Assembly: GCA_021817605.1 (NCBI GenBank)
Contig: JAKAUN010000002.1
Location: 3,676-67,675 of the forward strand
DNA from: Thermoplasmata archaeon
GTDB taxonomy: Archaea; Thermoplasmatota; Thermoplasmata; Lutacidiplasmatales; UBA184
DNA length: 64,000 nucleotides
Reading direction: 5' to 3'
The translations under genes were made by a program, and so were the position numbers. Below are positions 14,488 through 53,111 of the stretch, piece after piece; position 1 is the first letter of the stretch; each line of letters begins with the position of its first letter. Under the pieces are notes generated by a model that was not told where the DNA came from, did no database searches, and saw only the letters and a list, made by a program, of their open reading frames with translations.

Positions 14488-14489
14488 GG

Positions 14490-17498: not shown

Positions 17499-17987
17499 CT
17501 ACGGAACCTCCCCGCGCCGACGGGAGCGGCGCCGCTCCTCGGTCCTCCGTCGCCCCTCCTCGAACATGGCGCGCTCCTCCTCCGTGAGGGGGTGAAGCGG
17601 CGGAACCGCGGTCGGGCGGCCGTCCCGGTCGACCGCCACCATCGTGACGAACGCGTCGCCGACCTTGCGGACCGGCCCACCCTCGACCGCGCGCGAGGAG
17701 ATGCGCACCACCACTTCCATCGAGGTCCGGCCGGCGAACGTGAGCTCGCCGGAGAAGTCGACGACCTCGCCGACGTGCACCGGAGCGAGGAAATCGACAC
17801 GGTCGAAGGACGCCGTCACGCACGTCCGCTGGGCATGGCGGCTCGCCGCGACGTAGGCGACCCGGTCGACCTCGGCGAGGATCACCCCGCCGAAGACGTT
17901 CCCCATGAAGTTCGCGTCGCTCGGGACCATGAGACGAACGACCGACGCGCGGCTGGCGGCTACGGTTCCCGCGGACGGTTCGCTCAA
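17499..17987 (-). CDS. Acyl-CoA thioesterase (hotdog fold, YciA-like)
   Basis: ...VVRLMVPSDANFMGNVFGGVILAEVDRVAYVAA... is the typical hotdog thioesterase core. Abuts mbf1 with no gap. Confidence 0.7.
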   Translation of the reverse strand: MSEPSAGTVAASRASVVRLMVPSDANFMGNVFGGVILAEVDRVAYVAASRHAQRTCVTASFDRVDFLAPVHVGEVVDFSGELTFAGRTSMEVVVRISSRAVEGGPVRKVGDAFVTMVAVDRDGRPTAVPPLHPLTEEERAMFEEGRRRTEERRRSRRRGEVP

Positions 17988-18346: not shown

Positions 18347-21300
18347 CTAGGGCACTTCCTTGCGGTCTGCGCACGCCGCGTCCGTGGGACGGTCCTCGTC
18401 TCCCGCGGTCTGCCCCCCAAGAGCAGCTCCCGACCGGGAGGCGCCCGCCGCGGCCAGGAGCAACGTCGTCGCGAGAGCGGCTGCCGCGGGGAGCGCGAGC
18501 CCGGCACCGCCCACCGGCCCGCCGACCGACAACGCGGACGGAAGGCGGGGGAGCGCGGGGGGGTTCATGGTGACGTTGACGAGCTGCCTCGGAGACGGCG
18601 CGTGGAGCACCGCAATCGTTCCGCTGGCAGGGGTCGGGGCCTGCGTGTTCGCGACCCCCACGGTGTAGGTGTAGTTGCCTATCGGCAAGAGGAAACGGAT
18701 GACGCCCTTGCCGGCGAGCTTCGAAAGGGTCGTGGGGAAGGTGAGCGCCGGGGTCGAGCCGGTCGCGATCGTGACCGTCCAGGTCGCCCCAGCCTGTAGG
18801 CCCTTCTCGCGGAAGACGATCGCCTCGGTCAGTAGGCGGAACTTCACCACCTTGGTGAGGGCATGCTTGGGAACGTGGAACCCACCCTTGGCCGGCAGGA
18901 CCTTGTACTCCGCTCCCGGGCCGGCGATCGCGAAGTGGAAGGCGGCGCCGGTCGGTAGGGAGAACGATATCGAGGTGCCGGTCGATGTCTTCGACTGGCC
19001 GGCGGGTCCGCCGTGGGGGAACGCGGGGGTGAGATCAACTCCCCAGGTCGACCCCGCGTACTTCTGGAACTTCGCTAGCGAGCTCTGGTTGAAGGTGACC
19101 GTCTGGAGGTGCCCGAAGATGACCGTCCACGTGGCGACCCCCGACAGCGAGTAGGTCGGGGTCCCGTAGGTCTGGTTGGGCGACCCCGGACCCGCGATCC
19201 TGGCGACCCCCCATCCTGCGGGCCCACTGATGTTGTAGACGAGGGCGCCTGCCGCCTCCGAGAACGAGACCGAACCTGTCGACCCGGTCCCGGTCGTCAC
19301 CGTGGTGTCGCTCCTCACGATCCCGAGAACATCCACCGACCAGAGCGCCCCGGCCGGGAGGTGGAGCTCCCGGAAGCGCAAGGTGTGCCCGAGCGACGCC
19401 GTGAAGACGATGGGGATGTTCACGGGGCTCCCGCTGATCGAGAACTGCCCGCCGTAGAGGCTCGCGGCGAACCCCGGCACGAAGGGGATGGTGAAGTTGT
19501 AGCTGATGTTTTGGGCGTCCATGACCATCGCGTCGGGAGCCGGGGCGGTCGCCGTCACCGTGCCCGGAGGCGTGCCGAAAGCATGGCCGATCGAGAGCGA
19601 CCAATTCGTCCCGTTCGGGAGACCGGTCTCCGTGAACGTGGCGAGTTCGCCGGCTAGCAGGCTCGAGTTCGTCACCGCGTAGGCCTTCGACCAGTAGACG
19701 CTGGTCCCCGCGAACACGTTCTCTTGGAGGGTGATCGTGGTGAGCCCGTTGAAGCAGTCCGTCGCCTCGATGGACGCCGTCGGCACGACACTGGCGGCGC
19801 AGCTAGCCGCCGACTGGCTCGCGCCGTTGGACCCGGACGTGCTGGTCCCGATCAGCACGTTGTGGGCTGCCATCTGCGCCGTCCCGATGAGGAAGATCCC
19901 CGGCGCCCCGCTCGCCGCGTTGTTGACCACGTTCGCATCCACGGTGGTGATTCCCGTGCCTTGCGGCTCGGTCACGATGCCGTAGGCGAGGCTGTCGGTC
20001 ACGGTGTTGCCGTCGATCGTCGCCGGGGCGCCCGCGATGCCCGCGTAGCTCGAGGTGTACATCGCATACAAGATTCCGACCGAGCTCGAGCCCACGTGGT
20101 TCGCCTCGATGTTGCACGTCAAAGCCCCCGGAGCACATCCGGCCCAGATCGCCGACGATTGGGTCTGGGTGAAGTAGGAGCCGCCGGTCTCGAAGGAGAA
20201 GCCGCGGACGGTGTTGCCTGAGACGGTCACCGAGCTACCCCAGACGATGATCCCGCCCTCGGAGGCCGCCGTATCGGCTGCCCCTGGGCCGAGAACCGTG
20301 TTGCCGATCACCGAGAAGGTCCCGGTGGGCTCGACCGACGTTGCGGGGAAGATGTCGCCCGCCTCGATCCCCACCGGGCCGCCGGGGCCGGCCCCGCCGG
20401 CTCCGAGCGTGACCGTCGAGGATTCGATCGTGGCGCTCGTCAGGGCGGGGGCCACGATGATCCCGTTGACAGCGCCCGTTCCGAGCGTCGTCGCGTCCTT
20501 CACCGTGACCCCGTTCGCTTGGACCCCGATCGAGTTGCCGTCGCTCGGGTAGCCCGTCGTGTTGATCGTGAAACTCGCCCCGTTGAGCGTGCTGTCGGCC
20601 CAGTAGTCCGTAACGTTGCCCGCAAAGCTCGAGCGCAACGTGGCGACCGTGCCGGCTACCGACACCAGGCTGGCGTTCGTCGGGATCCCGCTCGAGCTCA
20701 GCACGAGCTGGCCGGGAGCCGCGTGGACGAACACGAGCACCGGCTCGACCACCGCCGAGCCGCTGACGGAGCCAACACCCGGGGTGATCAGCGTGTTCTC
20801 GTACCACCCGCCAATCGCTCCGATGCCGTAGGAGAACGATCCGTTCTGGAGATCGCCGACGATCGACGCCGGCGCGGGAACGTTGGCCGTGGTGCCGTTC
20901 ATCGTCACGGACCAGTCGAGGCCCGGGGTAAGGCCGCTCTCGGACCACGTAACATGCTCCCCACCCCGCTGGAACGAAGTCGCCGGGTAGGTCGGGAAGG
21001 TCGCCGTCCAGTCCGGCGCGTTCGTCTGAGCGAAGATGTTGGCGTTCAGCGTGACCTCGGTCGCGGGGTTGAAGCAATCGGTGGCCTCGACCGACGCGGT
21101 CGGGATCGTCGAAGCGACGCAGCTCGCCTGACCTTGGAGCGCCCCGTTGGTGCCGGTGGTGTTCGTCCCCAGGAAGACGTTCCCGGTCAGCGAGAAGGTC
21201 CCTCCAATGAGATAGGCGCCTGGGGCGCCGCTGGGAGCACTGGCGAACGTGTTGGACTCGACCAGGGAGACTCCCGCGGCCCCGGTGGGCTCAAGGACCA

Positions 21301-22240
21301 TCCCGTAGGCGAGGCTGTTGGTGATGGTGTTGTGCAGGACCACTACGGCCGATTGAGCGATGCTCCCAAAACCGGAGGTCATGAGGGCGTAGACGATGCC
21401 GATGCCGTTCGTGTTGAGGGTGTTGGAGTTGATGTCGCACGCAGGCGCGCCTACGGCGCAGCCGGCGAGGATCCCCACGGACTGGGTGTCCTGGAACCAT
21501 GAGGAGTAGGTATTCGCACCGGAGGTCGTGGTCGTGTCCAGGGAGAATCCGCTCACCGTGCTGTTGGTGATCGCGACGGAGTTTCCGTAGACGACGATCC
21601 CGGTCTCGCCGGCGGTGCCTCCCGCACCAGGACCGACGACCGTGACCGCGTTCACGACGAAGGTGCCCGTGGGCTCGACCGCCGTGGCCGGGAATACGTT
21701 GCCGAGCTGAATCCCCAGAGCCGTCGTGCTTCCGGCGGCGAGCGTCACCGTCGAGCTTTCGATCGTCGCCGAGGAGGTGACGAGCGAAGGCGCCGCAAGG
21801 ATCCCGTCCGTGCTGCCGCTCGAGATCGTCACGAAATTCTGCACCGTGATGCCGTTCGCCTCGAGGCTGAGAGCCGCGAGGTCGGTGGGATACGCCGTCG
21901 CGTTGACCACGCACCCGGAGCCGTCCAGCATACTGTTGGCAAACGAATCAGAAAGGTTGCCCGAGAAGCCCTCGAGCACCGTCACCACCGAACCGTTGAC
22001 GGAGACCGCTGTCGGGTCGCTCGAGACCCCTCCGGCAGAGATGGTGACCGTCCCGAGACTACCGGCGGAGGGGCAGGCGGCCAAGGTGGAGAAGGCAGGC
22101 CCTCCCGGCGCCGATCCGACGGAGGACCCGAGGAAGGGGCCCGCGCCGGCAATCGTGGGGGCAAGGGCGAACCCCACCACCGCGAGGAGGCCGACCAGGG
22201 CCGCCCGGACCACCACGCGTCGAGGGGCGCTCATAGCCAC
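18347..22240 (-). CDS. Large secreted/cell-surface protein (1297 aa): signal peptide, two tandem right-handed beta-helix modules each followed by a beta-sandwich domain, further beta-sandwich repeats, C-terminal membrane anchor
   Basis: N-terminal signal MAMSAPRRVVVRAALVGLLAVVGFALAPTIAGA. Dozens of N-x-S/T sequons. Gly/Thr/Ser/Asn/Val-rich beta-helix-like repeats with conserved TIESSTVTL, FPAT(A/S)VEPTGTF, ASCxAS..PTAS(V/I)EATDCFN. C-terminal hydrophobic stretch LALPAAAALATTLLLAAAGA followed by a charged tail. Confidence 0.75.
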   Translation of the reverse strand: MAMSAPRRVVVRAALVGLLAVVGFALAPTIAGAGPFLGSSVGSAPGGPAFSTLAACPSAGSLGTVTISAGGVSSDPTAVSVNGSVVTVLEGFSGNLSDSFANSMLDGSGCVVNATAYPTDLAALSLEANGITVQNFVTISSGSTDGILAAPSLVTSSATIESSTVTLAAGSTTALGIQLGNVFPATAVEPTGTFVVNAVTVVGPGAGGTAGETGIVVYGNSVAITNSTVSGFSLDTTTTSGANTYSSWFQDTQSVGILAGCAVGAPACDINSNTLNTNGIGIVYALMTSGFGSIAQSAVVVLHNTITNSLAYGMVLEPTGAAGVSLVESNTFASAPSGAPGAYLIGGTFSLTGNVFLGTNTTGTNGALQGQASCVASTIPTASVEATDCFNPATEVTLNANIFAQTNAPDWTATFPTYPATSFQRGGEHVTWSESGLTPGLDWSVTMNGTTANVPAPASIVGDLQNGSFSYGIGAIGGWYENTLITPGVGSVSGSAVVEPVLVFVHAAPGQLVLSSSGIPTNASLVSVAGTVATLRSSFAGNVTDYWADSTLNGASFTINTTGYPSDGNSIGVQANGVTVKDATTLGTGAVNGIIVAPALTSATIESSTVTLGAGGAGPGGPVGIEAGDIFPATSVEPTGTFSVIGNTVLGPGAADTAASEGGIIVWGSSVTVSGNTVRGFSFETGGSYFTQTQSSAIWAGCAPGALTCNIEANHVGSSSVGILYAMYTSSYAGIAGAPATIDGNTVTDSLAYGIVTEPQGTGITTVDANVVNNAASGAPGIFLIGTAQMAAHNVLIGTSTSGSNGASQSAASCAASVVPTASIEATDCFNGLTTITLQENVFAGTSVYWSKAYAVTNSSLLAGELATFTETGLPNGTNWSLSIGHAFGTPPGTVTATAPAPDAMVMDAQNISYNFTIPFVPGFAASLYGGQFSISGSPVNIPIVFTASLGHTLRFRELHLPAGALWSVDVLGIVRSDTTVTTGTGSTGSVSFSEAAGALVYNISGPAGWGVARIAGPGSPNQTYGTPTYSLSGVATWTVIFGHLQTVTFNQSSLAKFQKYAGSTWGVDLTPAFPHGGPAGQSKTSTGTSISFSLPTGAAFHFAIAGPGAEYKVLPAKGGFHVPKHALTKVVKFRLLTEAIVFREKGLQAGATWTVTIATGSTPALTFPTTLSKLAGKGVIRFLLPIGNYTYTVGVANTQAPTPASGTIAVLHAPSPRQLVNVTMNPPALPRLPSALSVGGPVGGAGLALPAAAALATTLLLAAAGASRSGAALGGQTAGDEDRPTDAACADRKEVP
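19370..22009 (-). repeat. Intragenic tandem duplication: two ~440-aa modules (about aa 78-517 and 518-957) of the surface protein
   Basis: Manual alignment of the two halves shows colinear conserved blocks, estimated ~45-55% identity. Examples: GNLSDSF.../GNVTDYW..., TIESSTVTL in both, GFSLDT/GFSFET, TDCFNPATEVTLNANIFAQ/TDCFNGLTTITLQENVFAG, VTWSESGLTPGLDWSVTM/ATFTETGLPNGTNWSLSI. Module boundaries are approximate. Confidence 0.6.
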
Positions 22241-24097: not shown

Positions 24098-24724
24098 GTG
24101 CTCGCCCCCGGGGCCGGTCGCTTTCTTCTGCCGGTCGCCCTGCTCCTTTTCCTCGACCTCGTTCTCCTCCTCCTCGGAACCCCGCCTCTCGGAGCGGCGG
24201 GCTTCGGGCTCGCGGCGGTCCTTGTCGGTCTTTTCGGCTTCTTCGCCGTCTTCTTCCGCGATCCCGAGCGGAGGGTCGGGGAGGGGATCGTTTCCGCCGC
24301 GGACGGCCGCATTCGGGCCGTCGAGCGGCTCGGGGAGCGCTGGCTCGTCTCGGTGTTCATGAACGTCACCGACGTTCACGTGAATCGCCTCCCCTTCGAT
24401 GCGACGGTCGAGGCGATCGACGCTCTGGGCGAGGGGTTCCGCCCCGCCTACCGCCACGACGCGGAGGCGAACGTTAAGCGTCGCTACCGGCTCGCCACGT
24501 CGCTCGGCACGGTGGAGGTCGTCCAGATCACCGGGATCCTGGCGCGTCGCCTGGTCCCGTTCGTCCGGGTCGGGGACTCCGTGGCGAAGGGAGCGCGGCT
24601 CGGCATGATCGTGCTCGGCTCGCGGGTGGACGTGCTGCTGCCGGCGGAGAGGACCGAGCCGACGGTCCGTGTCGGGGACCGGGTCGTCGCGGGGGTCACC
24701 ACGATCGCGAGGGTCCGGCCGTGA
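24098..24724 (+). CDS. psd: Archaetidylserine (phosphatidylserine) decarboxylase proenzyme, small archaeal type
   Basis: N-terminal TM segment. LGSRVD (G-S-x pyruvoyl-forming motif) near the C-terminus. 208 aa. Immediately upstream of pssA with a 4-nt overlap. Confidence 0.7.
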   Translation: MLAPGAGRFLLPVALLLFLDLVLLLLGTPPLGAAGFGLAAVLVGLFGFFAVFFRDPERRVGEGIVSAADGRIRAVERLGERWLVSVFMNVTDVHVNRLPFDATVEAIDALGEGFRPAYRHDAEANVKRRYRLATSLGTVEVVQITGILARRLVPFVRVGDSVAKGARLGMIVLGSRVDVLLPAERTEPTVRVGDRVVAGVTTIARVRP

Positions 24725-25464
24725 CGGACCGCTGGCGTGTCGGCGCGAACCTCGCCACCCTCGGCAACGGCCTTCTCGGAGTCGGCGCGGTCCTCTACAC
24801 GGTCGCGGGCAACAAGCTCTGGGCGATGCTCCTCATCACCCTCGCCATCGGGCTCGACGGACTGGACGGGCTGCTCTCCCGCCGGAGCGGCTCTGCGCCC
24901 GGGGCGTTCGGGCGCATCGCCGACTCGGCGGCGGACGCCGTCTCCTTCGGGGTCGCTCCCGCCGTCCTGGTCGCTGTGCACACCTCGGAGGTCGGCCTCT
25001 GGGCCCCGTACGCGACGCTGACGCTCCTCGCGGCCCTCGTCTACCTCGGCGCCGCCGTCGCGCGGTTGGCCTACTTCACCGCCCGAGCCCACGCGCTCCC
25101 GCACTTCCTCGGCATCCCGAGCCCCCAGGCGGCCCTCGCGGTGATCGTGACGGGGCTGTTCCTCGACACGCCGGCGCTCGCCCGGGTGGACCCGGCCGTC
25201 ACGGTCGCCGTCGTGCTCGCCATCGCCGTCCTCATGCTCGTGCCCGTGCCCTATCCGAAGATCCGGCGCGGGAGCCCGCTGCGCTGGCCGATGGCGACGA
25301 CCGCCGCCTTCGGGGCCCTCGCGCTCGTCCCCCTCCAGTTCCGCCTCGGCCGAGGGAGCCCGCTCTACGACCTCGCCTCCGCGGGGGCCTGGGGGCTCCT
25401 GGTCGGGGTGGCCGCCTATTACCTCGTGGGACCGTTCACGCTGGGTCGGCGAAAGGAGGGCTAG
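24721..25464 (+). CDS. pssA: CDP-alcohol phosphatidyltransferase, archaetidylserine synthase
   Basis: DG-x2-AR-x8-G-x3-D-x3-D signature: GLDGLDGLLSRRSGSAPGAFGRIADSAADAV. Multi-TM protein. Confidence 0.75.
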   Translation: MTDRWRVGANLATLGNGLLGVGAVLYTVAGNKLWAMLLITLAIGLDGLDGLLSRRSGSAPGAFGRIADSAADAVSFGVAPAVLVAVHTSEVGLWAPYATLTLLAALVYLGAAVARLAYFTARAHALPHFLGIPSPQAALAVIVTGLFLDTPALARVDPAVTVAVVLAIAVLMLVPVPYPKIRRGSPLRWPMATTAAFGALALVPLQFRLGRGSPLYDLASAGAWGLLVGVAAYYLVGPFTLGRRKEG

Positions 25465-43173: not shown

Positions 43174-43444
43174 GCGATCGACCTCCTGTTGTACCAGCTG
43201 ACGGCGAAACGCCCCGGCTCGTCGTCCGCCACCCCCCACGGGACATTCCGGCGGTCGACGGGGTCCGGGCCAGCGCCTTCTTGTGCAGGCGAACCTGCCA
43301 CCCCTTTTATGGGGCGCCTTCCAGGGGGCGGACCGCTGCTTAAGCCGCCGGCGCCCTGCGGACGGGGTGACCTCGCCTTCCGCGCCCCGGCCGCGACGCA
43401 GCAAAGAGACTTCGCCCCCCGGCTCGGCCATCGACGAACGGAGG

Positions 43445-43831
43445 ATGCGCGCGCTCGCCGAGCCGCTGGATGTGCGGTGGAGGTCCCGCGAGCCCTACCC
43501 CCTTCTCGAGGTGCGCAACCCGCTCCGCGGGACGCGCTATCTCGTACTGCTGCCGGCCTACCCCGACCGGGAGAGCGCCCTGTGCACGTGCACCGATTTC
43601 GCCCGGCGGGGCCTGGGAGACTGCAAGCACATCGAGTCCGCGTGGCGTTGGCTCGGCTCCCGTTCCGAGACCGACGACCCGCTCCCCGCCGTGGAGGAGC
43701 GGCCGGCGCCTCCCGCTGTGTGGGAAGAGGTGGATCGCCGCCTTCGTGGTGATCCCCCTCTCGAGCTACGGGACATTCGCGCGCTAGGCGCTCCGGGAAG
43801 GGTGCTCTTCGAGCGGAGAAGCGAGGGCTGA
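43445..43831 (+). CDS. SWIM zinc-finger domain protein
   Basis: CxCx(n)CxH signature ALCTCTDFARRGLGDCKHIESAW. Start placed at ATG 43445 (MRALAEPLDV). The track's GTG 43283 adds a low-complexity leader. Confidence 0.5.
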   Translation: MRALAEPLDVRWRSREPYPLLEVRNPLRGTRYLVLLPAYPDRESALCTCTDFARRGLGDCKHIESAWRWLGSRSETDDPLPAVEERPAPPAVWEEVDRRLRGDPPLELRDIRALGAPGRVLFERRSEG

Positions 43832-44202: not shown

Positions 44203-45912
44203 CTAGGTCGACATCCCCGGCGCGCTCTTGAGCGCCCGGATCTTGTAGTACTCGGGGTCGACGATGACCTCGCCGTTGACGCCCATCGTCTCGATCGTCT
44301 TCAGCTTGAGGCCGCCCTGCGACTTCGCCCGCTGCCAGTCGGGGATCGGGATCGAGAACTTCTTCTCGACCTCGGTCCGGTAGATCGGCCCGGAGTTGTA
44401 CGAGCAGAACGGGATGACCCGCCCGTCCGGGACCGCGTAGTGGATGTCGCAGCGCATCAGCCGCTGGATGTCGTAGTCGTAGGCGTCCTGGAAGTGCATG
44501 TTGCCGATGTAGAGCGTCCTCCAGGTGAACTTCGCGACGGCCTCCTTGTTGCCCTCGGTGAAGATCGAGGCGATCAGCCGCACGCAGTTCTTCTCCGTCA
44601 CGCCCTCCGGCGCCTTGGTGAAGTCGAAGTACTTCGCGACGTCGTGGAGGAGCCGCGCCCCGGCGACCACCGTCCGCACGCGCGAGAACCGCGCGTCGCG
44701 GTACTTCTCGATCATCCCCTCGACGTTCTCGAAGAAGCCGTCGACGTCCATGAACCGCGGCAGCGGGGTGATCTTCTCCCCGTCCTTGGAGACGAAGGCG
44801 AAGGTCGCGCAGCCGCAGCCCGGGTGCGTCGTGAGGGTCATCTTCTCCTCGCCGTGGATGATCGAGGCGAGCTCGGAGATCGGCGCGACCGACGGCACGG
44901 GGAAGAAGTCGGACTTGTCGAAGGGCCCGTCGGTGCAGAGGATGCGGACGAGGTCGGACTGGGTGAACCGCATCTGGAAGCGGTCCTTGTCGGGGATGCG
45001 GGCGGTCAGGGCGACCGGCTGGAAGTTGACGCCGCGCACGACGTCAAGGTTGTCGATCGCGAACTTGACCGTCGGCCAGATCTCCTTCTCGTTGAACCCG
45101 CCGACCAGCGTCGGGACGAGCACGACGGAGAGAGGCTTGTCCGGCTTACCCGCGGCGAGCTCGGAGGCCGGCGAGTGGGTCTCGCGGGCCGCCTGGATCG
45201 CCTTCTGCTTCACCTTGAACAGCGGCACACCACGGACCTTGCGGTAGATCTCGTCGTCCAGACCGTCGAACTGCAGGTAGAGGGTGTGCAGGCCCGCGTC
45301 CCGGGAGGCCTGGGCGAAGCCGGGCTCGTTGGCCACGCGGATCCCGTTGGTCGCGACCTGGATCTGCTTGAAGCCGAGGTCGCGGGACATCGACACCGCG
45401 TCTAGGAACAGCGGAGAGAGGGTCGGCTCGCCTCCGGAGAACTGGACCGCGACGGTGCCGACCGGCTTCTGCTCGCGCAGGGTCTTCAGCATGAAGTAGA
45501 TCTGCTCGCGGGTGGGCTCGAAGACGTAGCCTGCGGCGTTCGCGTTCGCGAAGCAGACAGGGCACTTGAGATTGCAGCGGTTGGTCAGGTCCACCAGGGC
45601 GAGCCCGGTGTGCGACTTGTGGTGGCTGCACATCCCGCAGGTGGTGGGGCAGCCGCGGAACTTGTCGTAGTAGGGGTTCTCGTAGCCGACCCCGTCGTGG
45701 GCATAGACCTCCATCCGCAGGTAGAAGTCCACGTCGTTGGAGATGATGTCCCAGAAGTAGCCGTGGGCTCGGCAGGTCTTCTCCATGATGACCCGGCCGT
45801 CTTTCTCGCGGACGATGGCGGGAATGACCTTGATGCACTCCGGGCAGACCGAGGCGGTCTTCCGGGGGAGGCCCCGCGGGGCCTGGAACTCCTTCATCAC
45901 TCGTGCCGGCAT
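44203..45912 (-). CDS. Radical SAM protein with N-terminal zinc-ribbon/rubredoxin-like motif and C-terminal auxiliary Cys clusters; Tes (GDGT/MAS tetraether lipid synthase)-like
   Basis: CNLKCPVCF (CxxxCxxC). N-terminal CPECIK...TCRAHG. C-terminal Cys pairs HPGCGCATF, RLMRCDIHY, FCSYN. 569 aa. The Tes assignment rests on domain architecture and lipid-gene neighbourhood and is not verified. Confidence 0.8.
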   Translation of the reverse strand: MPARVMKEFQAPRGLPRKTASVCPECIKVIPAIVREKDGRVIMEKTCRAHGYFWDIISNDVDFYLRMEVYAHDGVGYENPYYDKFRGCPTTCGMCSHHKSHTGLALVDLTNRCNLKCPVCFANANAAGYVFEPTREQIYFMLKTLREQKPVGTVAVQFSGGEPTLSPLFLDAVSMSRDLGFKQIQVATNGIRVANEPGFAQASRDAGLHTLYLQFDGLDDEIYRKVRGVPLFKVKQKAIQAARETHSPASELAAGKPDKPLSVVLVPTLVGGFNEKEIWPTVKFAIDNLDVVRGVNFQPVALTARIPDKDRFQMRFTQSDLVRILCTDGPFDKSDFFPVPSVAPISELASIIHGEEKMTLTTHPGCGCATFAFVSKDGEKITPLPRFMDVDGFFENVEGMIEKYRDARFSRVRTVVAGARLLHDVAKYFDFTKAPEGVTEKNCVRLIASIFTEGNKEAVAKFTWRTLYIGNMHFQDAYDYDIQRLMRCDIHYAVPDGRVIPFCSYNSGPIYRTEVEKKFSIPIPDWQRAKSQGGLKLKTIETMGVNGEVIVDPEYYKIRALKSAPGMST

Positions 45913-45999
45913 ACTTCGGTTCCTCCGTTTCCTGGTCCCTCGTTCCCGACTGGACCAAGAAGCTCACCCATCCCGCCCTACATAATCCATGTGTAGTTC

Positions 46000-46023
46000 G
46001 GACAGCGACAAATTCGGCTGTCC
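46000..46023. promoter_or_regulatory. 7-bp inverted repeat GGACAGC-(10 nt)-GCTGTCC in the 247-nt divergent promoter region between the Tes-like gene and ORF 46160
   Basis: Seen directly in the sequence. A cATAATcc TATA-like element lies at about 45980. Confidence 0.2.
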
Positions 46024-46159
46024 ATGACGTGTATTCGCATGGTAGAAAGCGCTACAACTCTCGTCAGCCGGCCCGTCTTCGCTCCTCGCACGCCGCTGGC
46101 CTGCGTGCCGGTCCCGACGAGAGGTTAAGCGAGCCGACGGCTGGACCGGGGAACCTACC

Positions 46160-46744
46160 ATGGCTCCTTCGCGCACCTCCCGTCGGTCGAGCCGCCGCGG
46201 CGGCCGCTCCCGGAAAGCTGGGACCACGCGACGGGTCCGAAAGCCGCCCGTGCCGAAGTTCGTGGGGCGGGACCCTTCCCCTGTGCTGGACCGCTACCCC
46301 CCGCGGGCGCCGCACGAGGGGCGGCCGACGCCCACAGCCGCCTCCGTCGCGACACCGTCGCCGGCACCGAGCGGCCGGGTAGCCCCTCCGGCCCGCGCCG
46401 CGGCCCCCCCTGCCCCCGCCCAAGGGCCGCCGGCCGGCCTCATCCGGCTCGACCGGCCGTTCGACCTCGACGAGTTCTCCCGGCTCCTCGGGGAGACCTC
46501 GATCCGGCTGAAGGTGCCTCGGGAGAACCTCCTGGAGGTGCTCGGGCGCGTTTTGGAGTTCATGGGCTTCGGGATCTACGTCTACGCGATCTCGGTGCGT
46601 CCTGCGCCCGCCGCTCTCCTCAAGGAGTTCGAGGTGGAGCTCCAGCGCGTGGACTACTCTGCCGAGCGGAGCCGCTGGGAGCCGTTCGTGGAGAGGGGGA
46701 GCGCGTCGTCGCCCCCCGGTTCGAGCTCGGGGAGCCCTCCGTAG
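46160..46744 (+). CDS. Hypothetical protein: Arg/Pro-rich basic N-terminal ~95 aa plus conserved-looking ~90-aa C-terminal domain
   Basis: Good ATG context (accATGg). C-terminal IRLDRPFDLDEFSRLLGETSIRLKVPRENLLEVLGRVLEFMGFGIYVYAISVRP... No recognised domain. Confidence 0.5.
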   Translation: MAPSRTSRRSSRRGGRSRKAGTTRRVRKPPVPKFVGRDPSPVLDRYPPRAPHEGRPTPTAASVATPSPAPSGRVAPPARAAAPPAPAQGPPAGLIRLDRPFDLDEFSRLLGETSIRLKVPRENLLEVLGRVLEFMGFGIYVYAISVRPAPAALLKEFEVELQRVDYSAERSRWEPFVERGSASSPPGSSSGSPP

Positions 46745-46811
46745 CCGGCGCTCCCTTCCGCGGACCTACCTCCTGCTCGCCCTTCGGAGCCGGCCGCAGC
46801 CGCTCGTCGGG

Positions 46812-47072
46812 GTGTTCATCTACTGGAAAGGGCTCGCCGAAGCCGAGAGGACCATGACGGCCGCTGGAGGATCCGACCGCTGGGAAGCCGAGCTCAAGGC
46901 GCTCCGGAGCGAGCTCAACGCCCTTCGGCAGGAACAGAGGGAGATGGCCGAGGCGATCAACCAGCTGCTGACGACCTTCCGGGGACTCGCGGCACATCTC
47001 GGGATCGCGACCGAGCCGTATGGCGGCCGCGGGACCCGCGCGTCGGAGCGCGACCTGCCCGGCTTCGGCTGA
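46812..47072 (+). CDS. Hypothetical small coiled-coil protein (86 aa; may start at ATG 46854)
   Basis: Heptad-like WEAELKALRSELNALRQEQREMAEAINQLL. No motifs. Confidence 0.35.
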   Translation: MFIYWKGLAEAERTMTAAGGSDRWEAELKALRSELNALRQEQREMAEAINQLLTTFRGLAAHLGIATEPYGGRGTRASERDLPGFG

Positions 47073-47118
47073 GCGGCTCGGACCTACGGGTTCCAAGACG
47101 GCCGTTGCCGATCGACGC

Positions 47119-48141
47119 TCAGCCCGGGGTCGGCTGGCGAACGACGGCCTTGCGCCCGTAGCGCCAGGACCCCTCGATGGCGTAGAGGCGCCGCAGCCTC
47201 GTGTCGACCCGGCCGCCTAGCCGGATCTCACCCGGCTCCGTATCGGTGAGGGCCACCGTGGCTCGGAGACCGTCGGCGAGCGCGACGAGCGCCACCCCGT
47301 AGGGCCCGACAGCGGCGACCTGCTCGTCGAACTCGGTAGGCTGGCCTCCGGGGCCGATCCAGGTGAGCGCGACGACCTCGAGCCCGTCTCGGGGGAGCGA
47401 CTCCGCGGTGAGCGTGTCCGCCCGGCCGCAGCGGCGGCAGCGACCCCGGGAAGGGAAGCTGAGTGTCGAGCAGGAGCGGCATCTCTCGCCGGAGAACCTC
47501 CAGCGGCTGGCGACGGCCTCGAGGTAGCTCGCCCGCGGGACGTAGGCGCCCTCGGAGACGGCCGCCGACGGGAACGCCGGCGGTCCCTGGGGGGGCGGAG
47601 GACGTCCCACGGCAGGGCTAGCCGCCCAGTCGCCCACCCAAGCTTTCGCCGCGGCTGCGTCGGCCCGTTGGGCGATCGGGACGAGCGCGGCGAGCTCCTG
47701 CCCCGGGAGGGGAGCTGTCCCCGCGGGGAGAAGGCTCGCCGTCGAGGAAGGGAGCTCGTCGACCAGGAGGGCAAAGGCCCCCTCGCCCGGGGGCGGGACG
47801 GCCGACGCGGGGGAGCCCGAGGCCTCCTCCACGGCACCGACCAGCAGTTCCGGTCCGGCTCCGTGGGAGGCACGTTCGAGGGCGTCGGCAAGGGGGGAGG
47901 CGGTCGGGTCGGGCGCGGGAACCACCGTCACGCTCTCGCCGAGGATCCCGGCAAGCAGCTCCGGAGGGAGGGCCCGTGCGGCGCCGACTTCCCGGATCGT
48001 CCAGGCGGGTGGCCTCGAGGTGCTGCCGGCTAGTAGCCGCTCAAGCGCCGTCGCCACCAGCGTGAAGGCGTCCTCGTCCCAGGAGCGGACGCGGCGCCGG
48101 CCGTCGGTGCGGGTGGGGAGGTAGGCGGCGGCCCGCAGCAC
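47119..48141 (-). CDS. DUF35 Zn-ribbon/OB-fold protein preceded in-frame by a degenerate HMG-CoA-synthase-like segment
   Basis: C-terminal CRSCSTLSFPSRGRCRRCG (CxxC...CxxC) plus OB fold. N-terminal AAAYLPTRTDGRRRVRSWDEDAFTLVATALERL and GEGAFALLV resemble the HMGCS N-terminus and oxyanion-loop region, but the catalytic Cys position reads PDPTASPL. ATG 48141 is 14 nt below the thiolase stop. A shorter DUF35-only product from an internal start cannot be excluded. Confidence 0.6.
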   Translation of the reverse strand: MLRAAAYLPTRTDGRRRVRSWDEDAFTLVATALERLLAGSTSRPPAWTIREVGAARALPPELLAGILGESVTVVPAPDPTASPLADALERASHGAGPELLVGAVEEASGSPASAVPPPGEGAFALLVDELPSSTASLLPAGTAPLPGQELAALVPIAQRADAAAAKAWVGDWAASPAVGRPPPPQGPPAFPSAAVSEGAYVPRASYLEAVASRWRFSGERCRSCSTLSFPSRGRCRRCGRADTLTAESLPRDGLEVVALTWIGPGGQPTEFDEQVAAVGPYGVALVALADGLRATVALTDTEPGEIRLGGRVDTRLRRLYAIEGSWRYGRKAVVRQPTPG

Positions 48142-48157
48142 CCCGCGCGTCGTCCTC

Positions 48158-49321
48158 TCACCCCACCGAGTAGATCGTCACGGCGCAGGTCGCCCCGGCC
48201 CCGCCGACATTGTGCGTGAGCGCGCTTCGGGCCCCCGGGACCTGGCGGGGGCCGGCGCTCCCGCGGAGCTGGTGGAAGACCTCGTAGGCCTGAGAGACGC
48301 CCGTCGCTCCGATCGGATGGCCCTTGGCCTTGAGCCCCCCGTCGGGGTTGACAGGGATCCGGCCGTCGCGGCGCGTCGCCCCCGAGAGGGTGAGGGCTCC
48401 GGCCTCCCCACGGCCGGCGAAGCCGAGGTCCTCGAGGGCGAGGAGCTCGGCGATCGTGAAGCAGTCATGGACCTCGAGGAAGGAGATCGACCCACGCTCG
48501 GCCCCGGCGGAGCGGAAGGCGGTCTCGGCGGCCCGTCGGCTCGCCTCGAAGCCGGTGAGCTCGGCCCGCTCCTGCACGGCGAGGCGGTCGGAGGCCGCCC
48601 CGATCCCGTCGACGTAGACCGGCGTGTCGGTGTACCGTTTCGCCGTTTCGGTCGAGGCGAGGAGGACGGCGGCGGCCCCGTCGCTCACCGGACAGCAGTC
48701 GTAGAGCCCGAGCGGATCGGCGACCCGGGGGCTGCGCAGGGCCTGTTCGCGCTCGATGCGCTTCTGGAAGTGCGCGTTCGGGTTGAGCGCGCCGTTCTCG
48801 TGGTTCTTGACCGCGACCTCGGCGAGGGCCTCGCGCCCGAGCCGGTAGCGGTCGAGATAGGCCGAGGCGAGAAGCCCGTAGACCCCGGCGAAGGTGAGCC
48901 CGGCCTGGCGCTCCCACTCGGTGTCGCCCGAGACACCGAGCCAGAAGCGGCGGCGGGCGTTGGAGACGTCGGTCATCTTCTCGAGGCCCGCGACGAGGAC
49001 GAGGTCGGCCGACCCCGAGGCGATGGCGTGGACCGCCTCGTGAAGCGCAAAGCCGCCGGACGCGCAGGCGTTCTCGACCCGGACGCAGGCCAGCCCGGGG
49101 ACGCCGAGCTCCTCGGCGAGCAGGGCGGAGGAGTTGCCGATCTGCCAGCCGCCGAAGCCCAGCGACGCGAGGTAGCTGCGGTCCACCGCCGACGGCTCGA
49201 AAGCGCGGTCGACGCTGCCGAGCGCCTGGCGCACCGCGCTCCCCAGAAGGGCCCGGGGTCCCTCGGGAAGGACGCCGAACCGGGTGTGCCCCGCCCCGAC
49301 GATCGCCGCGCGATGCACCAC
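48158..49321 (-). CDS. Acetyl-CoA C-acetyltransferase (archaeal thiolase)
   Basis: MVHRAAIVGAGHTRFG... Catalytic ENACASGG. C-terminal NVGGAGATCAVTIY. 387 aa. Confidence 0.85.
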   Translation of the reverse strand: MVHRAAIVGAGHTRFGVLPEGPRALLGSAVRQALGSVDRAFEPSAVDRSYLASLGFGGWQIGNSSALLAEELGVPGLACVRVENACASGGFALHEAVHAIASGSADLVLVAGLEKMTDVSNARRRFWLGVSGDTEWERQAGLTFAGVYGLLASAYLDRYRLGREALAEVAVKNHENGALNPNAHFQKRIEREQALRSPRVADPLGLYDCCPVSDGAAAVLLASTETAKRYTDTPVYVDGIGAASDRLAVQERAELTGFEASRRAAETAFRSAGAERGSISFLEVHDCFTIAELLALEDLGFAGRGEAGALTLSGATRRDGRIPVNPDGGLKAKGHPIGATGVSQAYEVFHQLRGSAGPRQVPGARSALTHNVGGAGATCAVTIYSVG

Positions 49322-49387
49322 GTCTTCCCCGTTGCACGAACCGTCTTAACGCCTCAGTCGCTGCGCCGGCCGGGCAGCGGGGCCAGG

Positions 49388-49963
49388 GTGGGCGACGATC
49401 GTCCGTTGGTCGTGGGAGTCACGGGAGCGAGCGGAGCCCCGATCGCCGTGCGGGTCCTCGAGGCCCTGCAAGGGGCCGGCGTGCCGGTCGCCCTCGTCCT
49501 CTCGGAGGCCGGGCGGGCGGTCCTCCGGGCCGAGACCGACCTCGAGCCGCTCGCCGTCGAGCACCTCGCGGGCGTCACCTACCGCGACGACGACATCGCC
49601 GCCCCGATCGCCAGCGGCTCGCGCGCCACCCGAGGGATGGTCGTGGTTCCCTGCTCGGCGTCGACCGCGGCGAAGATCGCCGTCGGGCTCGCCGACACCC
49701 TGCTGACCCGGACCGCCTTCGTCCACCTCAAGGAGCGACGGCCGCTCGTCCTGGTTCCCCGCGAGACGCCGATGCCCAGTGTCCTCCTGAGGCACCTCGC
49801 CGCGCTCAGCGAGATGGGGGCCGTCGTCCTGCCGGTGAGTCCCCCTTACTACCTGCGGCCGAGGTCGCTCGCGGACCTCACCGACTACATGGCCGGCAAG
49901 GTCCTCGACCACGTCGGAGTGCCGCACCAGCTCTACCGTGGCTGGCGCGAGCCCGAGGAGTAG
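49388..49963 (+). CDS. ubiX: Flavin prenyltransferase UbiX (prenyl-FMN synthase)
   Basis: From GTG 49388: MGDDRPLVVGVTGASGAPIAVRVLEAL... and ...VVVPCSASTAAKIAVGLADTLLTR... match the UbiX/Pad1 flavoprotein. About 191 aa. The upstream track frame is antisense of the thiolase. Confidence 0.75.
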   Translation: MGDDRPLVVGVTGASGAPIAVRVLEALQGAGVPVALVLSEAGRAVLRAETDLEPLAVEHLAGVTYRDDDIAAPIASGSRATRGMVVVPCSASTAAKIAVGLADTLLTRTAFVHLKERRPLVLVPRETPMPSVLLRHLAALSEMGAVVLPVSPPYYLRPRSLADLTDYMAGKVLDHVGVPHQLYRGWREPEE

Positions 49964-49965
49964 GG

Positions 49966-50562
49966 ATGAGCGCACGGGTCCCCTCGCGCTCGAAAAGCCC
50001 GGCCGACCCGCTCGGTCGCTACGCGCCCGCGCCGTTCGTCGCGGCCAGCGCGGTGCTCGTCCTGCTCATCGTCTTCACCCCGGTCCTTTTGTCGACGGGG
50101 CCGAGCCCTCTGCTCACGCAGGGGGAGCTCACCATCGACCGCGTCGCGGGCCAGAACTGGACGAAGTTCTGGGTCATGCCGCTCGACCCGCACGCGGTCC
50201 TCTACCGGTCGATCACGCTCGCCGTCGGCACGGGATTCAGCTGGAACGGCACCTGCCCGACCTCTCCGCTCTCCTGGAGCACCACCTCCGACACGCAGAC
50301 CCACGCCCTCAGCGTAAACACGACCGCGGACCCGGTCGTGGTGAACGCGACCGCGGTCTACGCGATGGGCGCCGGACGCACGGTCTACGCCGGGGAGTAC
50401 GCCTTCGATGTGGTGAACCCCGGCGGCCCGAGCCCGACGATGCTCATGGTGCCGTGCACCTCCGCGACCCCGGGAGCCACCGTTCCGGAGCCCTCGGTCG
50501 CGGTGACCAACGCTTCGATCACCTTCGGCCTCGTCAACTACGGCAGCGGAGGGGTCCCGTGA
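49966..50562 (+). CDS. N-terminally membrane-anchored extracytoplasmic protein with N-glycosylation sequons, unknown function
   Basis: TM FVAASAVLVLLIVFTPVLL, then Ser/Thr/Asn-rich region with NWT, NGT, NTT, NAT, NAS sequons. Confidence 0.45.
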   Translation: MSARVPSRSKSPADPLGRYAPAPFVAASAVLVLLIVFTPVLLSTGPSPLLTQGELTIDRVAGQNWTKFWVMPLDPHAVLYRSITLAVGTGFSWNGTCPTSPLSWSTTSDTQTHALSVNTTADPVVVNATAVYAMGAGRTVYAGEYAFDVVNPGGPSPTMLMVPCTSATPGATVPEPSVAVTNASITFGLVNYGSGGVP

Positions 50563-50930
50563 GGCCGGGGAGGGCCGTTCTCGTCGTCTGGAGCGTCGTC
50601 GTGGGGGTCCTCGTGATCCTCGAGGTCGCGGAGGTGACCCGGGTGTTCACGGTCCCCATCGCCCGCGCCGTCGCCGACCCGCTCGTGCTGCTCGTCTCCC
50701 TTCTGTTCACGACGGTCATCGCGGTGGTCGGGGCGATCTTCGTCGGGATCTCGATGTCGGCGCGCCTGCTCAATCCCCGGGGATTCACCCCCTTCGAGGA
50801 AGAGATGCTCCGGATGCGCGCCGACCTCCTCGAAGTCAAGCGGTCGGTCGAGGAGGTCCTCCGGCGGGAGGGGGCCTCGCCGCCGACGGCTCCGCCGCGC
50901 GACCCGCCGAGGCCAGGAGACCGCCGGTGA
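50559..50930 (+). CDS. Small membrane protein (2 TM + charged C-terminal tail), unknown
   Basis: GTG 50559 overlaps the preceding stop (GTGA). AVLVVWSVVVGVLVILEV and PLVLLVSLLFTTVIAVVGAIFVGI. Confidence 0.4.
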   Translation: MRPGRAVLVVWSVVVGVLVILEVAEVTRVFTVPIARAVADPLVLLVSLLFTTVIAVVGAIFVGISMSARLLNPRGFTPFEEEMLRMRADLLEVKRSVEEVLRREGASPPTAPPRDPPRPGDRR

Positions 50931-51545: not shown

Positions 51546-53111
51546 ATGGCGCGGATCCGAAGAGGCTCCACAGTCCGGGAGGCGGACCTCCTTTCGCGAG
51601 CCAAGGCGCTGAGGTCGAGCGTCGAGCCGCTGCTCCCGCGGCTCACCGCCGAGTGCCCGACCGAGCGGTTCGACCGTCTTCGGCAGGAGCTCGAGGAGGT
51701 CCGGGCCGCACGCGAGGACGACAAGCGGCTCACGCGTCTCTCCCGCTGGGGGGATCCTCTCGCCCGGGCCTACGCCGGCCTGCTCAAGTTCGCCCTCGAA
51801 CCGACGGCGCCCGCGGTGGTCGCCTTCGAGATCCCGGGTGGCGAGGTCTCCTTCGCGCCGCTCGCCCGCACCGACCGGGAGGCAGAGGTCGCGGTGCAAC
51901 AGTCGGACGACCCGGGACGCCTGCTCCTCGGCTACCTCACCTGGGGGAAACGCGGCTTTCACTTCTTCGCGACCCGCAAGACGCTCTGGTGCACGGGACG
52001 CTCGCCGACCCCTCCTGAGGAGTTCCTCGCGGAACGGATCGCCGAGCAGCCGTACCGCCTCATCGAGAACGCTGCGGAACGACGGTTCGACTGCCCGCAC
52101 CTTTCCAGCGGAGAGCCTCGACCCTACCTCGAGGTCGGCTGGGTCGGCGCGGACCGGCGGTTCCGGGTCTGCCGCCGCTGCGCGAAGGAGGGCCGTCAGC
52201 TGCTCTCGAGCCTGTCGGAAGGGGCGCTCGGGCCGGACCCCGTCGCGGAGTTCCCCGTCGCGGCCTCGCTCAACGTCCGCTGCTCCGGCGGGCAGGCGTG
52301 CGTGCACGCCGTCCTCCCGGAGCTGCCCCGCCCGCTCCGCCAGAGCTACGAGCGAGGGCGCCTTTCGGACGCGCAGCTGATCGACGAGTACCTCCTCGAG
52401 CTCAGGCCGCGTCTCGAGCGGGTGAGCCGGCCGACGTTCGTTGCCGGCGGGGTCTGCTACGGCTCCGATCTCTCGGGCTTTCTCCAGGCACTAGATCCCA
52501 CCCCGGCCGAACGGGCCGCGCTCGAGACGGTCCTCGGCGGACGCCCCGGGCTCTTTGAGGTGGACGAGCCGTCCGCGAGCCGGGCGCTCGAGAAGCTCTG
52601 GGCGTCGCACGCGGAGGAGATCGTCTCGGCGATCGTCCACGACCCGAAGGAGGCCCGACGGCTCGTCGACCAAGCCCGCGGCGCCCCGGGGCGCGTCGCG
52701 GAGATCCTCAAGCGCGCCCAGCGCCAGAGCGAGACCCGGGAGCTTCTGGGGACCTTGCCACAGTACGCTTCGCTCGCCCCCGAGGCCGCGTGGGCGGACC
52801 GGATCGCCCGCGTCCATCGCACCGGAGGGGATGCGGCCGCCGAGCGCGCCGTCACCGAGTCGCTCCCCCGCGAGGGCAAGACCCGCGGGCTCGCCTACGG
52901 GATGCTCCTCGCCATCGGGCGGACCGGCCCGCATGCCTGGCAGTTCTCCCCGACGGAGAAGGAGTTCGGCCAGTCGCTCGAGCCGCGGGCCCGTGCGCTC
53001 CTCGGCTCGACGCCGGAGGGCTACCACGAGGCGCTCGGCGCCCTCCTTACCGCCGCCGGCGTCGCGGGGTGGGGAACTCTGGCGGCTCCCAACGTTCCGC
53101 GCGAAGGGTAG
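51546..53111 (+). CDS. Hypothetical 521-aa protein with scattered Cys/His motifs
   Basis: No recognisable domain. Cys motifs CPHLSSG, RVCRRCAKEG, VRCSGGQACVHAV. Non-repetitive composition argues it is real. Confidence 0.5.
   Translation: MARIRRGSTVREADLLSRAKALRSSVEPLLPRLTAECPTERFDRLRQELEEVRAAREDDKRLTRLSRWGDPLARAYAGLLKFALEPTAPAVVAFEIPGGEVSFAPLARTDREAEVAVQQSDDPGRLLLGYLTWGKRGFHFFATRKTLWCTGRSPTPPEEFLAERIAEQPYRLIENAAERRFDCPHLSSGEPRPYLEVGWVGADRRFRVCRRCAKEGRQLLSSLSEGALGPDPVAEFPVAASLNVRCSGGQACVHAVLPELPRPLRQSYERGRLSDAQLIDEYLLELRPRLERVSRPTFVAGGVCYGSDLSGFLQALDPTPAERAALETVLGGRPGLFEVDEPSASRALEKLWASHAEEIVSAIVHDPKEARRLVDQARGAPGRVAEILKRAQRQSETRELLGTLPQYASLAPEAAWADRIARVHRTGGDAAAERAVTESLPREGKTRGLAYGMLLAIGRTGPHAWQFSPTEKEFGQSLEPRARALLGSTPEGYHEALGALLTAAGVAGWGTLAAPNVPREG

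Follow-up and report, generated by a model that had tools for sequence, protein, structure and literature searches.

A thiolase paired with a predicted catalytically dead HMG-CoA synthase–DUF35 fusion in soil Thermoplasmata, and a possible split of mevalonate entry over two complexes

Here we describe a two-gene operon from a Thermoplasmata archaeon of the order Lutacidiplasmatales (assembly GCA_021817605.1, contig JAKAUN010000002.1) that encodes a thiolase and a protein joining a truncated HMG-CoA synthase (HMGCS)-like domain to a DUF35 domain. The operon lies in a 5.8 kb block of six genes (44203-49963) within a stretch of 64 kb and ~70% GC, hereafter the window; the data comprise these 64 kb of the source genome and the flanks of relatives. 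By analogy with characterized assemblies, we propose that the pair forms a thiolase-only complex on a pseudoenzyme scaffold, and that mevalonate entry is split over two mirror-image complexes, each with one live enzyme and one dead copy, a reading to which we assign a probability of roughly 55%. The thiolase and dead HMGCS–DUF35 pair, mirrored by an operon of HMGCS and a dead thiolase, would be a new archaeal arrangement of a known assembly type; no description of the mirrored two-operon arrangement was found in the searchable literature. The block runs from tes (tetraether lipid synthase) through two small open reading frames (ORFs), o194 and o86, the fusion and the thiolase to ubiX (flavin prenyltransferase). 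All six genes lie where the original prediction, made from the DNA sequence, had placed them, and in each ORF the G+C content at third codon positions (GC3) is 0.85-0.97, the codon signature of real genes in this genome.

Relatives were taken as the best 80 of 382 thiolase relatives, from a scan that kept one genome per species. The scan, based on a thiolase alignment, picked clade-specific peptides, so that all 80 loci come from one clade and provide no outgroup context. All are species-level metagenome-assembled genomes (MAGs) of soil or peat Thermoplasmata; they include UBA184, one named Lutacidiplasmatales MAG and genomes named Lutacidiplasmatales/TMEG, and the isolate names AcS and SubAcS among them match the naming in the description of the order (PMC9287336).

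The thiolase (48158..49321, minus strand, 387 aa) is of the archaeal/SCP2 type and is the first gene of the operon. Its identity as a thiolase, already proposed in the original prediction, is confirmed by Pfam matches to Thiolase_N and Thiolase_C_1, by a score of 448 bits against NF004720 (cutoff 420) and by the retention of all catalytic motifs (NACAS with C86, HDCF at 285-288 and GHP at 334-336), which are invariant in five aligned orthologues. Its score of 379 bits falls below the cutoff of 600 for NF053570, the equivalog of the acetoacetyl-CoA thiolase (ACAT) of M. thermolithotrophicus. Across the 80 loci the thiolase is 67-84% identical (median 73%). The translational coupling of thiolase and DUF35 protein that had been predicted is approximately right: the genes are 16 nt apart in the window, and the spacing is -3 to +7 nt in most relatives.

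The fusion gene (47119-48141, minus strand) encodes 340 aa, of which residues 1-200 (47542..48141) form a truncated HMGCS-like domain of thiolase fold and residues 205-340 (47122..47529) a DUF35 zinc ribbon and OB fold; the earlier description of a degenerate HMGCS-like domain joined to DUF35 was correct on both halves. The DUF35 half matches PF12172 and PF01796 just under the Pfam gathering cut-offs, and its profile matches 6ESQ_E (E=7e-17); in sequence it comes closest to the DUF35 protein found in the thiolase/HMGCS complex from M. thermolithotrophicus. Foldseek returned PhlB (best), the 6ESQ DUF35 protein and BbsA at 1e-9 to 1e-6. The zinc ligands C221, C224, C235 and C238 are invariant and are the only four cysteines in the protein. 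The AlphaFold model of the fusion (pLDDT 89, pTM 0.89) has a confident fold and a fixed domain arrangement.

For the N-terminal domain alone, Pfam and NCBIfam returned no family. A profile of 35 fusion homologues matches HMG-CoA synthases in the Protein Data Bank (PDB) over the N-terminal 130 positions (E=1.8e-5), and Foldseek relates this half to FabH and MvaS. In the alignment with the M. thermolithotrophicus HMGCS, whose sequence was recovered from a PDB alignment, the domain has no Cys, the HMGCS cysteine motif ACxGG falls in a gap, GSES (which holds the catalytic Glu82) is replaced by VGAA, and the region bearing the His and Asn is deleted. The sequence thus predicts a truncated, catalytically dead HMGCS-like domain from which the E-C-H-N tetrad is absent. 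Residues D22-E23-D24, E34 and G68 are invariant in the fusion; the D-E-D motif was considered as a source of the catalytic Glu and ruled out, because Glu82 of the M. thermolithotrophicus enzyme sits in GSES, which the fusion lacks.

Of the 80 related loci, 70 contain the fusion, with a median identity of 44%; the remainder are mostly cut contigs. A database search gave 355 homologues over the full length (320-370 aa), and all those with an organism name come from Thermoplasmata MAGs. Deeper-branching relatives encode a long form of 420-485 aa (L081:11149-12471; also L054, L064, L067, L069, L075, L076, L079 and L082-L087), with ~100 extra residues between the N-terminal domain and DUF35 and an N-terminal domain of ~300 residues, compared with ~200 in the short form. 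On visual inspection these extra residues look like the C-terminal strands of HMGCS, which suggests stepwise truncation; the N-terminal domains of the two forms no longer align by BLAST. When a 440-aa long form was used to look for bacterial relatives of the HMGS-DUF35 kind, the word-indexed search gave Thermoplasmata proteins only, and no protein with an HMGCS Pfam domain was among the matches to either form.

Neither in the window nor in any of 87 related loci was an HMGCS gene found. Metagenome contigs were scanned with a GC3-biased back-translation of the archaeal motif GSESxPYA(V/I/L)KP, which yielded 120 loci; each of them encodes HMGCS, and in most the genes follow the canonical order HMGCS-thiolase-DUF35. 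One high-GC cluster among them has archaeal neighbours, and its HMGCS homologues are named Thermoplasmata archaeon. Assignment by whole-genome shotgun accession prefix showed that two related MAGs hold both this operon and the thiolase-fusion locus, on separate contigs (GCA_035623855.1, DASPSQ010000003.1 versus DASPSQ010000006.1; GCA_035297125.1, DATGZQ010000032.1 versus DATGZQ010000039.1). The clade HMGCS scores 522 bits against the archaeal equivalog TIGR00748 (cutoff 353), so a genuine HMG-CoA synthase is encoded elsewhere in both of these genomes. The window pair is consequently a second, paralogous set. The original prediction had taken it for the mevalonate-entry complex of archaea; in the canonical sense this fails, as the tetrad is absent and an intact HMGCS operon lies elsewhere, but it is partly rescued in that the window thiolase may be the working mevalonate-entry thiolase.

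This last possibility arises from the thiolase of the HMGCS operon. When this thiolase is aligned with the enzymes of M. thermolithotrophicus and P. furiosus, its nucleophile motif reads GGGAS (AACAS in M. thermolithotrophicus ACAT), the HDxF motif HDAY (HDCF) and the GHx motif GRP (GHA). In 17/17 clade loci examined, it has lost both catalytic cysteines (nucleophile and base) as well as the GHx His, and the protein is 79-81% conserved, versus 86-87% for HMGCS. It scores 508 bits against NF053570, also below the cutoff, and is 43% identical to the window thiolase. In the wider environmental sample, E-C-H-N is kept in 110/110 HMGCS sequences, including those beside Cys-less thiolases, and 41 of the 76 operons with both genes encode a thiolase without the nucleophilic Cys, usually with the GHx His gone too (L208-L217, L122, L125, L145, L151, L177 and L203, for example L211:5056-6225; L124, L150, L187, L099, L108, L174, L115, L204, L103 and L153; and ~20 more). 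One Cys-less group is named Methanomassiliicoccales, and a Methanoregula operon has the intact set; the Cys-less operon thiolase may be a class-wide Thermoplasmata trait. In a rough neighbour-joining tree, the Lutacidiplasmatales Cys-less thiolases group with other Cys-less ones beside the M. thermolithotrophicus group, and there is a second, separate Cys-less group. No report of a Cys-less thiolase in HMGCS operons was found in the searchable literature.

The window holds a third thiolase-fold/DUF35 pair (13954-15911, minus strand), composed of a 473-aa PRK06365-like protein (621 bits, cutoff 695), in which the nucleophilic Cys is replaced by Gly and GHP is kept, and a 177-aa DUF35 protein. 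Among the three DUF35-partnered thiolase-fold proteins seen for the clade, the window thiolase alone has the nucleophile.

The archaeal thiolase/HMGCS/DUF35 complex is a textbook case of substrate channelling, in which an unfavourable Claisen condensation is pulled into membrane-lipid synthesis. The window pair shares with the M. thermolithotrophicus complex (6ESQ) the three folds, the adjacency of the genes, the CxS/HDCF/GHx motifs of the thiolase and the four-Cys zinc ribbon and OB fold of DUF35. It differs in the HMGCS part, which is cut to ~200 residues, lacks the tetrad and is fused to DUF35, in a gene order that puts the thiolase first, and in the failure of the thiolase at the NF053570 cutoff; the operon of canonical layout in related genomes is separate, and its thiolase appears to be a dead subunit.

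The nearest functional analogue is the PfACAT/HMGS-DUF35 system of Pseudomonas fluorescens (PMC12960953, 2026), a thiolase gene with a fused, tetrad-less HMGS-DUF35. The window pair fits this type by its architecture, the likeness being drawn from the published description and not from a comparison of sequences. The thiolase Cys, HDxF and GHx are kept in both, and neither has polyketide synthase (PKS) or non-ribosomal peptide synthetase (NRPS) neighbours. The Pseudomonas system is bacterial, the HMGS-like part of the window fusion is shortened to about half (~300 residues in the long form), and no complementary dead-thiolase operon has been reported for Pseudomonas. A tetrad-less HMGS-like part, a thiolase-like subunit and a DUF35 clamp are likewise shared with PhlABC of Pseudomonas protegens and MucABC of Streptococcus (PDB 5M3K, 9SKH and 9VBO), which unlike the window fusion are three separate proteins inside natural-product clusters. 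Cys-less thiolase folds with a DUF35 partner, like the operon thiolase and the pair at 13954-15911, also occur in the steroid aldolases Ltp2-ChsH2(DUF35) and Sal-Shy(DUF35) (PDB 6OK1 and 9MYR); these catalyse retro-aldol cleavage of steroid side chains, and no likeness of substrate to the window pairs is implied.

In the arrangement that we propose, the fusion would clamp the thiolase dimer through DUF35, as in the ACAT/HMGCS/DUF35, PhlABC and MucABC assemblies, and would fill the place of HMGCS, keeping the thiolase soluble and competent. The window complex would be limited to thiolase chemistry (2 acetyl-CoA <-> acetoacetyl-CoA + CoA). In the second operon, the intact HMGCS would be held by the Cys-less pseudo-thiolase and a free DUF35 protein, and would receive the acetoacetyl-CoA made by the window thiolase. 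Each dead copy would then be an obligate structural partner, of the enzyme type that is live in the other complex. We infer complex formation and thiolase-only activity from these analogies. A reason to retain dead partners is offered by PMC12960953: in its account of Vogeli 2018, archaeal ACAT is insoluble when expressed by itself and HMGS by itself has no activity, and the P. fluorescens ACAT with its fused, tetrad-less HMGS-DUF35 is a thiolase-only complex. The argument for mevalonate entry starts from the operon thiolase, which lacks both Cys and His: some thiolase must feed HMGCS, and the window enzyme is the obvious candidate.

Were this correct, a large and abundant clade of soil archaea would run both reactions with enzymes that keep only a dead copy of each other, which would be a clear example in nature of pseudoenzymes being kept as obligate structural partners. 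Automatic 'acetyl-CoA acetyltransferase' labels inside archaeal HMGCS operons could then be wrong, given the 41 of 76 without a nucleophile, and a specific gene would be nominated as the true mevalonate-entry thiolase of those soil Thermoplasmata that produce glycerol dialkyl glycerol tetraethers (GDGTs). More tentatively, the idea extends to HMGCS in at least two Thermoplasmata orders (Lutacidiplasmatales and Methanomassiliicoccales), which might work in a shell of Cys-less thiolase and DUF35, the methanogen-type channelling metabolon being absent as such; with the Lutacidiplasmatales thiolase in a second complex shelled by the dead HMGCS–DUF35 fusion, channelling would be either rebuilt from four gene products by mixing or docking, or abandoned. 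We hold this extension to be rather doubtful; either outcome would change ideas about what drives the endergonic opening step in archaeal isoprenoid synthesis.

Several points weigh against the split-entry proposal. Its least certain part is the assignment of the window thiolase to the mevalonate pathway instead of catabolism, which we put at about even odds: the bacterial PfACAT complex only cleaved acetoacetyl-CoA in vitro (PMC12960953) and Lutacidiplasmatales are predicted fatty-acid degraders (PMC9287336), which makes a catabolic role for the enzyme about as likely. In the rough neighbour-joining tree, the window-type thiolase falls outside the entire set of HMGCS-operon thiolases, which marks it as an old paralogue or a transfer and not a recent duplicate, and so lends no support to simple reciprocal decay after duplication. 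Profile-profile similarity between the N-terminal domain and archaeal HMGCS is weak (hhalign probability 16-30%), so that the HMGCS ancestry of the domain rests on hmmsearch against the PDB and on the predicted structure. Mean pairwise identity among relatives is 35% for this domain and 63% for the DUF35 half, and such fast evolution could mean decay instead of a maintained role. Further intact thiolases may exist outside the 64 kb and the flanks of the relatives.

Condensation is endergonic without a coupled HMGCS, and this counts for the alternative that the pair is a catabolic acetoacetyl-/3-ketoacyl-CoA thiolase of fatty-acid, ketone-body or amino-acid breakdown, with the dead HMGCS–DUF35 protein only a solubility scaffold and the proximity of tes and ubiX accidental. 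To the thiolysis-only activity of the Pseudomonas complex can be added the prediction that beta-oxidation is common among Lutacidiplasmatales (PMC9287336), and the fact that the window thiolase is only distantly paralogous to mevalonate-type ACATs, matching 6ESQ_A at 237 bits compared with 359 for the operon thiolase. Yet no acyl-CoA dehydrogenase, hydratase or dehydrogenase genes adjoin it in the window or in the loci of four relatives with gene tables, and the Cys-less operon thiolase would be unable to supply acetoacetyl-CoA, so that another thiolase must, the window enzyme being the only DUF35-partnered one seen with a nucleophile. We consider the purely catabolic reading unlikely, although it is the most serious of the alternatives.

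The original prediction had treated the block as a single isoprenoid-lipid cluster, in which the pair is the mevalonate-entry complex, UbiX serves a UbiD-type decarboxylase, Tes makes GDGTs and both small ORFs have lipid roles. The archaeal mevalonate pathway does need prenylated flavin mononucleotide (prenyl-FMN), all of the named genes are real, and the expected conservation of gene order was found across the 80 species-level MAGs: ubiX divergently adjoins the thiolase in 80/80 loci, and o194 adjoins tes in 61/61 loci where o194 was found. The collinear run comprises a 521-aa protein without a Pfam match, a glutamine amidotransferase, ubiX, the thiolase, the fusion, o86, o194, tes, a Na/H exchanger and DUF6015. 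However, the whole +/-10 kb region is collinear, the unrelated flanks as much as the genes of the block. The distance between thiolase and tes varies from 2.1 to 7.4 kb; it is as compact as in the window in 18/58 genomes, and in the other 40/58 an M61 peptidase gene, in some also an ABC transporter, parts tes from the thiolase pair. Neither ubiX nor tes was seen in the flanks of any of the 120 HMGCS operons on other contigs. In addition, o194 is lineage-restricted and appears to lack a catalytic fold, o86 is a small coiled coil, and in a heterologous host Tes works without a partner (PMC8941075). A functional cluster of six genes is therefore very unlikely. We propose that the clustering does not go beyond inheritance and that four transcription units, namely tes, o194 with o86, the thiolase-fusion operon, and ubiX, would have been kept together by descent.

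A further alternative, also quite improbable, casts the pair as the ketothiolase (KT)/DUF35 module within an archaeal fatty-acid synthase independent of acyl carrier protein, with the dead HMGCS domain docking a reductase or dehydratase. In Sulfolobus acidocaldarius such a complex is nucleated by a KT/DUF35 pair (Saci_1121/1120), and several pairs per genome are common in archaea, including Thermoplasmatota (bioRxiv 10.1101/2024.07.05.601840); the clade studied here has at least three thiolase-fold/DUF35 pairs, and both the Sulfolobus and the window operon are paralogous to the mevalonate pair and one of several in the genome. The Sulfolobus DUF35 is, however, a free-standing protein without an HMGCS-like domain, and lies with reductase and dehydratase genes in a fatty-acid gene cluster; among the genes called within +/-10 kb in four relatives and among the scanned ORFs of the window, there was no short-chain dehydrogenase/reductase, ketoacyl-CoA reductase, MaoC dehydratase or enoyl reductase.

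Friedel-Crafts type C-acylation, with acetyl-CoA as the donor to a small-molecule acceptor as in PhlABC and MucABC, would use the same three-domain parts with a tetrad-less HMGCS-like subunit, and PhlB is the best Foldseek match of the DUF35 half; but the PhlABC and MucABC thiolase subunits have lost HDxF and gained acceptor-binding residues (PMC12960953), whereas HDCF is intact in the window thiolase and invariant in its aligned orthologues, and no PKS or NRPS genes are nearby, so we reject this activity as highly improbable. That the fusion is a decaying pseudogene is hardly credible and was rejected on conservation: its N-terminal domain diverges fast and varies from ~200 to ~300 residues, and the gene is frameshifted or truncated in two MAGs (L015:11163-12223 and L047:11544-12218; assembly errors or real pseudogenes), yet the ORF is intact in ~70 species and always coupled to the thiolase, with the invariant residues and confident model described above and a GC3 of 0.87, and the contig names of the two MAGs suggest long-read assembly, so that the frameshifts may be assembly errors.

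The tes gene (44203..45912, minus strand, 569 aa) would be transcribed on its own. The original prediction of a Tes-like protein is upheld by a score of 569.1 bits against the NCBIfam Tes equivalog NF045702 (cutoff 450) and by an alignment of 456 bits with the GDGT-MAS structure 7TOL that covers residues 12-534 and is full-length. Pfam recognizes Radical_SAM (PF04055) and Zn_ribbon_HMPTM (PF23545); the radical-SAM CX3CX2C motif is C113/C117/C120, and the motifs CPxC...C.xHG, GCPxxCGxC and MRCxIHY...FC are all aligned between the two proteins. Scores against other families were far lower (TrsS <=321 bits, MoaA <=56, PqqE 44), and a grouping with PqqE or the sulfatase maturases, the outcome that would have spoken against Tes, is ruled out at <=44 bits. 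By homology, then, the 569-aa protein is predicted with confidence to be a true Tes/GDGT-MAS; it shares full-length homology, the radical-SAM motif, the zinc ribbon and the cluster cysteines with Maeo_0574, MA_1486 and MJ0619 (structure 7TOL), and no difference of note was seen apart from naming, as public records label it 'radical SAM protein' or '7,8-dihydro-6-hydroxymethylpterin dimethyltransferase'. It would join two archaeol tails to give GDGT, and Tes alone is enough for GDGT formation in the heterologous host Methanococcus maripaludis (PMC8941075). Identity across 58 related loci is 71-98% (median 94%), in species whose other proteins share 40-75%, and a single 90%-identity cluster of Tes contains 567 sequences; purifying selection on tes is unusually strong. 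The gene has a GC content of 65.6%, against 70-73% around it, and GC1/GC2/GC3 values of 0.59/0.41/0.97. Convergent with it lies a conserved 182-aa ORF (43283-43831, plus strand) that has a SWIM-type zinc-finger pattern (CTC...CKH), matches no Pfam model at threshold and recurs, with 36-63% identity, in 46 related loci.

Between the divergent tes and o194 lies an intergenic region (45913..46159) with conserved non-coding motifs. In an alignment of 45 of the 64 recovered upstream regions, blocks corresponding to 45960-46060 of the window are at least 80% conserved. They include two TTGTMGC boxes on the tes strand (46004-46011 and 46050-46057, 46 nt apart) and an inverted repeat, CTACA(45978)...TGTAG(45992), which overlaps a TATA-like TTATGTA (45979-45985 on the plus strand) ~75 nt upstream of the tes start; the tes ATG itself is preceded by a Shine-Dalgarno-like GGAGG (45922-45926). 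These motifs may constitute the promoter/operator of tes. No Rfam family matches the intergenic region, and scans of the region for sigma-70 promoters, terminators, Rfam families and tRNAs found nothing.

Both small ORFs are real and conserved, having been called by independent gene callers and found in 61 (o194) and 64 (o86) related loci. The product of o194 (46160..46744, plus strand, 194 aa; NCBI calls a 153-aa version) has an Arg/Pro-rich, disordered basic N-terminal ~100 aa and a conserved, generic alpha/beta domain of ~80 aa (residues ~100-178). Among 1.84 billion representatives, this domain is confined to 17 clusters, each with 47% identity or more, which makes o194 lineage-restricted; Tes by contrast is widespread. 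For o86 (46812..47072, plus strand), the likely true start is ATG 46854, giving a ~72-aa coiled coil; the 72-aa version is called in relatives and by NCBI, identity over the 64 loci is 42-74%, and in some genomes an ABC transporter parts o86 from o194. Pfam and NCBIfam gave no family for either protein, only sub-threshold coiled-coil matches, and neither resembles enzymes or membrane proteins. Their earlier nomination as lipid-pathway candidates is not borne out, given a lineage-restricted o194, a small coiled coil for o86 and a Tes that suffices alone; two tempting genes thus drop off the list of possible GDGT-pathway genes. A local regulatory role is possible for o194, because the region it shares with tes carries conserved motifs.

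UbiX (49388..49963, plus strand) was correctly named in the original prediction: it scores 202.7 bits against TIGR00421 (cutoff 108.9) and 200.3 bits against NF004685 (cutoff 188). The likely start, GTG 49388, gives 191 aa, and relatives encode 191-193 aa. No UbiD-type anhydromevalonate-phosphate decarboxylase or phosphomevalonate dehydratase was seen in the scanned part of the 64-kb window, and no usable information about genes for mevalonate, UbiX/UbiD or GDGT is contained in PMC9287336 or its supplements. The gene heads a divergent, tight co-directional run in which two small ORFs without a family (49966-50930, plus strand; 198 and ~123 aa) and a class-I glutamine amidotransferase follow. 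The conserved 521-aa protein noted above (51546-53111, plus strand) is collinear across the clade, as are the two small ORFs before it.

Elsewhere in the window, phosphatidylserine-decarboxylase-like and CDP-alcohol phosphatidyltransferase genes overlap by 1 base (24098-25461, plus strand); they are probably an archaetidylserine synthase/decarboxylase pair, and thus head-group lipid genes ~19 kb from tes. A 4HBT-family acyl-CoA thioesterase (YciA-like; 17502-17987, minus strand) adjoins a small zinc-ribbon/helix-turn-helix protein that is MBF1-like by eye (17052-17498, minus strand); the thioesterase is another CoA-ester gene in the window and is unlinked to the thiolase-fusion pair. Finally, a Thr/Ser/Gly/Ala-rich protein of 1297 aa (18350-22240, minus strand) has an N-terminus resembling a signal anchor and, internally, two long repeats of ~500 aa, and is presumably a surface protein.

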